Shown: positions 36,245-37,238 of the stretch, piece by piece | Layout of the letters: the number at the start of each line of letters is the position of its first letter | Numbering within the stretch: the first letter of the stretch is position 1 | From: a virus | Lineage: Duplodnaviria; Caudoviricetes | DNA: 64,000 nucleotides | Direction: 5' to 3' (one strand) | IMG/VR virus record: IMGVR_UViG_3300046318_000318 | The notes under the pieces: model-generated | What the model saw: the letters and a program-made list of their open reading frames with translations, nothing else | Databases searched by the model: none | Told to the model about the DNA's origin: nothing | Program-made: the position numbers and the translations under genes

Positions 36245-36856
36245 TCACTGTGTCATTCTCATGTCTGTTAAAATCAGTTTTCTGACTGTGGTTTCCAAGC
36301 CAGGGAAAACTGTCAAAACATTAGACATCAAGTTATTCCTTACCTTATTCCTAAGATTGAAGTCGTTATCTGCATTGGTAGGATCTGTCAGATACTTTAA
36401 CCTATAGAAGTTAGCATACTCTATAATAGTCTTCTTAGAAGTAGTTAACAAAGGTCTCTGCACATTACCATTTTGATAAGCCATCACTCTACTTCTACCT
36501 TGACAGCTGGTCATCAGGTACCATTCAGTAGCATCAGACAGATGATGACCTGTAAGTACAGGCTTATCCATAGATTGAAATATGGTGTTTCTTTTTCTAG
36601 ACCAAAAGGATTCTAGAGATGTGGAGTTATCAAACTCAGACAACTTGAAGGTTTTATAAGCTAAACCAAGCTGATTAGCTGTCTCTTTACAGAAAGCCAG
36701 TTCAGTCTTACTAAAGTCTGTGTTATGATCCACAGTAAGTAAAGTTACATTAACTCTCTTCCTTAACAGAAGGTGTAAAAGTACGACCGAATCTATACCG
36801 CCTGAAAAAGCAAGGTAAACATCTTTTTGAAGAGTCTTAAGTACATTGAGTTTCAT
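36245..36856 (-). CDS. tilS: tRNA(Ile)-lysidine synthetase, catalytic domain only
   Basis: PP-loop AFSGGIDS, TGHHLSD, RPLL and DPTN...RNKVR; directly downstream of a CAU tRNA. Confidence 0.9.
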   Translation of the reverse strand: MKLNVLKTLQKDVYLAFSGGIDSVVLLHLLLRKRVNVTLLTVDHNTDFSKTELAFCKETANQLGLAYKTFKLSEFDNSTSLESFWSRKRNTIFQSMDKPVLTGHHLSDATEWYLMTSCQGRSRVMAYQNGNVQRPLLTTSKKTIIEYANFYRLKYLTDPTNADNDFNLRNKVRNNLMSNVLTVFPGLETTVRKLILTDMRMTQ

Positions 36857-36926
36857 GTGTTGAGAAAAAAAGAAAAGACACAACTGCTCAGAATCTATAA
36901 GACTCTAAGCAGTTGTGCTTTTTTGT

Positions 36927-37238
36927 TGGTAGGCAGGATGAGATTCGAACTCACTATCTTCGGCTTCACATTTGTGTTAGTTTCCTAACTCTGTGGACTA
37001 TATCACCATCCTTAACTTAATATTAGGATGTCGGGCGCTTTACTCTGTTATTAAGAAGATTCTACTTCTCAGATAGTCTCTGCACTTTCCTAGGGTATAC
37101 CCTAAGCTTAGCTCAGTATTGCCGTCGTCATTATACGTTACGGTTTCACTGAATTCACCCGATTATTCAATACTGATTACTCAGTAAGGTCACCATTGAG
37201 ATGAGGCCGCCGCTTATAACCCCTTAAGCTTCCCGCCT
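36927..37238 (-). tRNA. tRNA-CAU (probably Ile2), interrupted at 36/37; exons 37238-37201 and 36966-36927
   Basis: spliced cloverleaf with acceptor AGGCGGG/CCUGCCU, loop CU-CAU-AA, TTCGAAT T-loop and encoded CCA; Ile2 identity inferred from the adjacent tilS. Confidence 0.88.
36967..37200 (-). mobile_element. group I intron, IC3-like (234 nt)
   Basis: P1 CAU|...GUG with U.G; GUGAAUUCAGUGAAACC, GGCAAUACUGAGCUAAGC, GCAGAGACUA and GAUAUAGUCC; omega-G at 36967. Confidence 0.9.

Follow-up and report, generated by a model that had tools for sequence, protein, structure and literature searches.

Why does a giant phage carry a tRNA gene with the anticodon CAU, split by an intron, directly ahead of a gene for TilS, the enzyme family that forms lysidine at C34, and what does the intron do there? 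The arrangement lies on the minus strand of a 64,000-nucleotide (nt) stretch of DNA, referred to below as the window, from an uncultured freshwater giant phage (IMG/VR record IMGVR_UViG_3300046318_000318; Caudoviricetes), where tRNA(CAU), its intron, a hairpin and the TilS gene follow one another on the same strand. An earlier note had described this locus as a self-contained module for decoding AUA in which splicing gates the lysidine modification. Its anatomy was correct throughout: a CAU tRNA, a 234 nt intron after position 36, a gap of about 70 nt and a 203-residue TilS with the catalytic domain only. We consider it probable that the phage carries here a cassette for decoding AUA, the tRNA gene of which houses a mobile group I intron. 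The decoding part of this reading is well supported by the comparative evidence set out below. The same comparisons indicate that the intron is an optional selfish insertion and not a regulatory device.

TilS, tRNA(CAU) and their linkage

The TilS gene (P0001; 36245–36856, minus strand) encodes 203 residues, which score 103.1 bits against the equivalog model TIGR02432 (lysidine_TilS_N; cutoff 93.6) over profile positions 2–188 of 189, and 99 bits against PF01171; other PP-loop families score far lower. The PP-loop motif SGGxDS, here S18-GGIDS-23, is invariant in 43 family members, and the 16 columns invariant in that set also include D108/E111, R134-P135, D158/N161 and R169-N170/R173. These residues align with S32–S37 (including D36), D137/E140, R167-P168, D191/N194 and R201-N202/R205 of Aquifex aeolicus TilS, which, from the structural papers, we take to bind ATP, lysine and C34. 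Type I TilS (Escherichia coli, PDB entry 1NI5; Geobacillus kaustophilus, 3A2K) and type II TilS (A. aeolicus, 1WY5/2E21) have the PP-loop motif in common, and the bacterial motifs HHLxD..E, RPL, D.TN and RN..R are kept in the phage protein, as is the fold of the N-terminal domain (TM about 0.8). In the AlphaFold model (pLDDT 95.3) the chain ends in a helix. The best five PDB matches to this model are all TilS (2E21, 1WY5, 2E89, 1NI5 and 3A2K; TMq 0.79–0.82, E values from 7e-13 to 2e-11), and the next are the tRNA thiolases TtuA/NcsA. By profile, motifs and predicted fold the protein is best regarded as a genuine TilS catalytic domain.

All TilS enzymes have been described as either type I, with two C-terminal domains, or type II, with one (PMC11947777; PMC12514573). 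The phage protein aligns with residues 24–227 of the A. aeolicus enzyme and 12–196 of the E. coli enzyme, and stops where the linker helix of the cellular proteins begins. It has neither CTD1, the C-terminal tRNA-binding domain of type II, nor the CTD1 and CTD2 of type I, whereas the bacterial enzymes carry at least one appended domain. It is thus a catalytic-domain-only form that belongs to neither type. Cellular TilS is thought to need the extra domains to discriminate tRNA-Ile2 from tRNA-Met, both of which have the anticodon CAU. An enzyme without domains that read the tRNA body probably works from the anticodon arm alone, and recognition of that kind would make the enzyme–tRNA pair portable between hosts.

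Small TilS proteins of this kind are widespread. Metagenomes hold more than 110 clusters (at 90% identity) of TilS of about 200 residues, some on contigs of 130–265 kb. An alignment-based scan of IMG/VR gave 192 TilS matches, where a scan with a single protein query had returned nothing, and all 80 loci retrieved encode proteins of 191–263 residues. One-domain TilS is also already present, uncharacterised, in the cultured Pseudomonas jumbo phages PA5oct and MIJ3. These are likewise AT-rich giant phages, with a TilS also of 203 residues and about 30% identical to that of the window, whose role was left open (PMC6892783). PA5oct is not nucleus-forming and its TilS gene has no tRNA within 2.5 kb, whereas the TilS of the window sits in a tRNA cassette.

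The 5′ exon of tRNA(CAU) (37201–37238, minus strand) has 38 nt, comprises positions 1–36 and ends in CCUCAU; the 3′ exon (36927–36966, minus strand) has 40 nt, starts with AAGCCGA and ends in ACCA, so that the CCA is encoded. Spliced in silico, the exons give a regular cloverleaf, the stem pairs of which covary with those of intronless relatives. The acceptor stem has seven pairs, among them A1–U72 and G5·U68, and the D stem is GCUU/AAGC. The anticodon loop is the 7 nt CUCAUAA, with U33, A37 and A38, and is followed by the 3′ strand GCCGA of the anticodon stem, a canonical T arm, A73 and CCA. The tRNA is not an initiator: positions 1 and 72 are paired, and the anticodon stem, GCGGC/GCCGA, is without the three G–C pairs at 29–31/39–41. 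Two oddities remarked on earlier hold under standard numbering: position 8 is A, although U8 is nearly universal, and G27 is mismatched with A43. Position 9 is also A. Six phage tRNAs share this A8/A9 body, and compensatory changes among them affect three stems, those of the acceptor, anticodon and T arms; two intronless relatives with this body score 54.6 bits (locus L008) and 47.5 bits (L015) with the Rfam tRNA model. The G27·A43 mismatch is also present in the tRNA-Ile(CAU) of phage T4. That a phage enzyme serves an atypical tRNA, as the earlier note proposed, is plausible.

As a separate observation, tRNAs with A8–A9 and the GCUU/AAGC D stem occur with either a CAU or a UUU anticodon (L008:2345-2421, L015:1998-2071, L030:2886-2961 and L013:1495-1573). 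Their pair 7–66 is often mismatched and ARAGORN overlooks some of them. The occurrence of both anticodons on this body suggests anticodon switching within one tRNA lineage.

The CCA end of the tRNA (36927) and the ATG of TilS (36856) are 70 nt apart on the same strand, and this proximity recurs. We reduced 91 TilS loci to 36 lineages by dereplication at 80% TilS identity and inspected flanks of 3–4 kb. A CAU tRNA lies in the flank in 19 of the 36 lineages and within 150 nt in ten, typically 7–90 nt upstream on the same strand. Twenty-one lineages have any tRNA near TilS, and in 16 of these the tRNA closest to TilS has the anticodon CAU; CAU tRNAs make up 20 of the 67 tRNAs counted. The pairing recurs in lineages whose TilS is only 32–94% identical. 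Among 30 distinct CAU tRNAs neighbouring TilS none has initiator features and all have A73. The acceptor and anticodon stems of these tRNAs differ widely, and no anticodon-stem pair is conserved. Such diversity fits an enzyme that would read almost nothing but the anticodon loop.

In L001, the closest relative, TilS shares 94% identity with that of the window, and the flanks are collinear at 80–93% DNA identity. Similarity is lost exactly between 37554 and 36818, and in that slot L001 has an intronless tRNA-Arg(UCU) and an intronless tRNA-CAU of quite different sequence. With flanks so alike and a different pair of tRNAs between them, the pair must have been swapped as a cassette. A further locus, L030, has 21 tRNAs, two of them with CAU. 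The one adjacent to TilS has the A8-type body seen in the window, and the other, about 1.7 kb away from TilS, is among the tRNAs around tRNA-Ile(GAU).

The intron in the tRNA gene

The intron (36967–37200, minus strand; 234 nt, inserted after U36) has no open reading frame (ORF) and is a full-length match to the group I model RF00028, at 87.7 bits (gathering score 50; E value 5e-21). Its P1 helix pairs the exon sequence UCAU with the internal guide GGUGA, with a wobble pair U36·G, and its last base is G. Insertion after position 5 of the anticodon loop of a CAU tRNA places it in class ‘Ile2.5Ug’ of Williams' naming, which is the Azoarcus site (doi 10.1101/2020.01.27.920355; PMC13168695), in agreement with what the earlier note had said. 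The Azoarcus intron is likewise a small group I intron without an ORF, inserted directly after U36 of a CAU tRNA, and likewise has a P1 formed with the anticodon, a U·G wobble and a terminal G; the exons are 39 and 40 nt in Azoarcus and 38 and 40 nt in the phage. The likeness is one of site and anatomy. The Azoarcus intron is bacterial and 205 nt long, whereas that of the window is a phage intron of 234 nt in a tRNA gene adjoining TilS. According to a 2014 review, phage introns had by then been seen in protein genes only (PMC3984707), and we found no later paper that places one in a tRNA gene of a phage.

Two other loci, L004 (TilS 73% identical) and L075 (32%), have homologous introns after U36 of the CAU tRNA that immediately precedes TilS. 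Aligned with one another, the three introns share the P1 with its U36·G wobble and the terminal G, and in 24 of the 62 predicted intron pairs both bases have changed in a compensatory way. The three introns of this one family sit in three different tRNA-CAU bodies, and most CAU tRNAs adjacent to TilS are intronless. Together with the intronless L001, this is the pattern of a mobile element. The intron may also protect the gene from nucleases that target tRNA genes. A different arrangement was seen at L032:225-530, where the TilS-adjacent tRNA has an apparent group I-like intron after U33; if the anticodon is CAU, position 37 is G, and the splice sites are tentative.

RNA contigs from three metatranscriptomes cover 36915–37215. 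Some of them span both splice sites, and these come either from the precursor transcript or from DNA contamination. A contig of 231 nt matches 36967–37190 exactly: it starts at the terminal G of the intron, falls 10 nt short of the intron 5′ end and has seven extra letters. It may be an excised intron that is 5′-truncated or circularised, as described for Azoarcus. No contig with ligated exons is among the RNA contigs, which cannot show absence.

We propose the following course of events. The pre-tRNA would be transcribed, probably together with an upstream non-coding RNA of about 1.1 kb and tRNA-Arg(UCU), and transcription would mostly end at the hairpin between the tRNA and TilS. The intron would excise itself, with GGUGA paired to U33-C34-A35-U36 and the G at 36967 setting the 3′ splice site, to leave a 78 nt tRNA with the loop CUCAUAA. 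In the precursor C34 is base-paired within P1, so that lysidine would be formed only after splicing. The one-domain TilS would then turn C34 into lysidine with ATP and lysine, the isoleucyl-tRNA synthetase (IleRS) of the host would charge the tRNA with isoleucine, and the tRNA could then read AUA.

Codon demand and alternative readings

The putative product of the cassette would meet a heavy demand, concentrated in AT-rich, tail-fibre-like and accessory genes. Over the 17,175 codons of the window ATA accounts for 329 of 1105 Ile codons (30%), or 19.2 per 1000, where more than 10 per 1000 has been called ‘high’ and E. coli has 4.9 (PMC12514573). The ratio ATA/(ATA+ATT) of 0.54 is the highest such ratio of A-ending to T-ending codons among nine codon families. 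Use of ATA is bimodal, with at least 40% in 22 genes and at most 15% in 17. The suggestion in the earlier note that the AT-rich accessory and tail genes use ATA codons is borne out by this count, since the 22 include tail-fibre-like and accessory genes. The gene for the nuclear-shell protein (chimallin) has no ATA among its 29 Ile codons, and no AGA or TTA. The fractions of ATA and AGA rise together (rho 0.66), in keeping with the tRNA-Arg(UCU) gene adjacent to tRNA(CAU).

Two codon classes are also apparent when, for example, 23196–25064 is set against 61821–62984. The shell and RNA-polymerase genes are nearly without ATA, AGA and TTA, and the tail-fibre-like and accessory genes use these codons, which are read by the phage's own tRNAs, at 40–67%.

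The TilS domain, the recurrent CAU linkage and the heavy use of ATA uphold a module for AUA decoding, but to call it self-contained goes too far. In the TilS gene itself three of five Ile codons are ATA, so that the module is not strictly self-starting, and it continues to depend on the host for IleRS and for further enzymes of tRNA maturation.

Several observations weigh against the proposed cassette. The hairpin and its U-run stop only about 12 nt before the TilS ATG, the region upstream of TilS shows no obvious promoter or Shine–Dalgarno sequence, and the TilS coding region is without cover in the RNA contigs, although contigs cannot show absence. A CAU tRNA is absent within 3–4 kb in 17 of the 36 TilS lineages. 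ARAGORN, with or without its intron mode and also on the spliced form, makes no call for tRNA(CAU). The tRNA has one of the two acceptor determinants of E. coli TilS (C4–G69 is present; pair 5–68 is G·U), and the body elements that distinguish Ile2 from Met vary among species (PMC11947777). Among annotated tRNAs its body comes closest to tRNA-Lys(UUU) of a Vibrio phage, which shares its D arm and anticodon stem. Comparison with annotated phage tRNAs was therefore rejected as a way to tell Ile2 from Met, the body being uninformative, and sequence alone cannot separate tRNA-Ile2 from elongator tRNA-Met. Finally, a type I TilS from which CTD2 is removed is much less active and shows relaxed acceptor-stem discrimination (PMC11947777), and by analogy a TilS free of appended domains may be weak.

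How, then, do other explanations compare? The idea that splicing is a designed gate, the intron being kept to time or limit lysidine formation and hence AUA decoding during infection, can appeal to the pairing of C34 in P1, which would keep TilS from acting before splicing, to the unspliced, precursor-spanning contigs in environmental RNA and to the recurrence of an intron-split tRNA-CAU directly upstream of TilS in L004 and L075. We nevertheless consider it unlikely. The corresponding slot of the closest relative holds no intron, nor do most TilS-adjacent CAU tRNAs, and the same intron lies in unrelated tRNA bodies while the Arg and Leu tRNAs of the phage are also intron-split, again the pattern of a mobile element. 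A gate would also bring little benefit, as an unmodified CAU tRNA would act as tRNA-Met. That splicing should precede lysidine follows from the insertion site, and no regulatory purpose is needed to account for it; on this point the earlier note is not upheld. If the tRNA were instead an ordinary elongator tRNA-Met with TilS nearby by chance, the enzyme might serve the host tRNA-Ile2, for example where host TilS is limiting. The lack of any Ile2-specific signal in the tRNA body would allow this, as would the small TilS genes of PA5oct and many other loci that have no adjacent CAU tRNA. We think this quite unlikely, given that CAU is nearest to TilS in 16 of 21 lineages, often at 7–90 nt on the same strand, and that in L030, where two CAU tRNAs were available, the one next to TilS is of the A8 type and the second is some 1.7 kb away.

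Very unlikely, in our estimation, is an unspecific enzyme that also modifies the tRNA-Met or tRNA-fMet of the host as a means of takeover, or that performs other C34 or nucleotide adenylation chemistry. The absence of C-terminal domains would be in keeping with it, as would the thiolases that come next among the structural matches and the neighbouring tRNAs, whose anticodon stems share no pair and which have only the loop in common, as in tRNA-Met. Against this, the protein clears the equivalog cutoff with the invariant residues specific to TilS intact, it lacks Cys motifs that could hold an Fe–S cluster, and conversion of tRNA-Met would presumably harm phage translation as well. We give the least credence to the view that tRNA(CAU) is a decaying or non-functional copy carried along by the intron cassette, to which A8, G27·A43 and G5·U68 might point. 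The failure of ARAGORN and a minimum-energy fold of the spliced tRNA that is not a cloverleaf speak for decay. The A8/A9 body conserved among six phage tRNAs, three stems of which show compensatory changes, the G27·A43 shared with T4 tRNA-Ile, the canonical T loop, A73 and CCA, and the intact intron core all speak against it.

The AUA-decoding cassette with a mobile intron is therefore the reading we prefer. An extended form of it is possible but doubtful: the one-domain TilS and the odd CAU tRNA, with A8 here and rewired or long-arm bodies elsewhere, would form a host-independent, orthogonal-like pair that travels as a cassette among jumbo phages and relies on recognition of little more than the anticodon arm. 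The intron would be kept because its insertion removes the site attacked by tRNA-gene nucleases during co-infection, and it would also impose the order of splicing, lysidine formation and charging with isoleucine.

Neighbouring features and significance

The hairpin between tRNA(CAU) and the TilS start (36868–36918, minus strand) has 19 bp and a U-run and resembles an intrinsic terminator by terminator scan and folding energy (−31.2 kcal/mol, z −7.3). It is present as a single copy in the window and does not belong to the leader or terminator elements that the phage repeats; L004 has a different hairpin at the equivalent place.

Directly upstream of tRNA(CAU) lies tRNA-Arg(UCU) (37248–37551, minus strand), the exons of which (37551–37518 and 37288–37248) are separated by a group I intron of 229 nt (37517–37289) between U34 and C35, with an Rfam score of 49.1 bits, just below the gathering score (E value 7e-11). 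Once spliced in silico the gene is called tRNA-Arg(tct) by ARAGORN, with a loop, CUUCUAA, identical to that of the intronless L001 tRNA-Arg; the call of Ser(GCU) for the unspliced gene was rejected as the result of a misplaced splice site. The intron resembles sequences beside HNH genes in L002, L005 and L006. The tRNA-Leu(UAA) gene (50043–50354, minus strand) has its group I intron after position 25, at the junction of the D stem and anticodon stem and not in the anticodon loop. An ARAGORN ‘tRNA-Met’ at 61240–61332 is treated as false, since Rfam does not support it and a tail-fibre-like ORF encloses it. With tRNA-Thr(UGU) these genes complete the set of the window: Arg(UCU), CAU, Leu(UAA) and Thr(UGU). 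Phage T4 carries the same four species, which read A-ending codons, and its CAU tRNA is annotated as tRNA-Ile. The T4 genes, however, are intronless and the annotated tRNA cluster has no TilS gene, so that T4 presumably relies on the TilS of its host.

The window encodes the chimallin shell protein together with an RNA polymerase in split form, and its phage is of the nucleus-forming (phiKZ-like) kind. No sequenced phage has a DNA polymerase that exceeds 41% identity to the one encoded here. Searches of the neighbouring ORFs with Pfam and PHROGs matched only an IS110-type transposase and a radical-SAM-like protein; the transposase-like gene (32574–33419, minus strand; PF02371, phrog_4285) is conserved in L001. 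The 545 nt past the TilS stop (35700–36244, minus strand) have no ORF of at least 25 residues on this strand, fold with z −7.7 relative to shuffled sequences and end in a strong terminator (35743–35706). The segment is 90% conserved in L001, RNA contigs cover 36000–36233, and it is a candidate for a structured RNA or a long 3′ untranslated region. Beyond it, an ORF of 283 residues (34826–35677, minus strand) without a Pfam or PHROG match is missing from the collinear L001, which marks an insertion or a deletion close to the downstream end of the cassette. In three other loci a match to the twister-sister ribozyme lies about 1.3 kb beyond the TilS homologue on its downstream side (L005:5940-6021, L006:5152-5233 and L007:3228-3309; 42.1 bits, gathering score 34).

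Two parts of the cassette are fresh variations on familiar kinds. One is a TilS without any appended domain, already present but unexamined in cultured phages; the other is a phage tRNA gene interrupted by a group I intron, by which tRNA genes join the known homes of phage group I introns. A widespread TilS that consists of the catalytic domain only and lies beside its presumed substrate is a natural minimal system, which could be used to probe what the catalytic domain alone recognises and how tRNA-Met is spared, if it is spared. A compact enzyme–tRNA pair of this kind could also serve work on codon reassignment. For the phages themselves, the cassette shows how AT-rich giant phages may escape the weak AUA decoding of a host.

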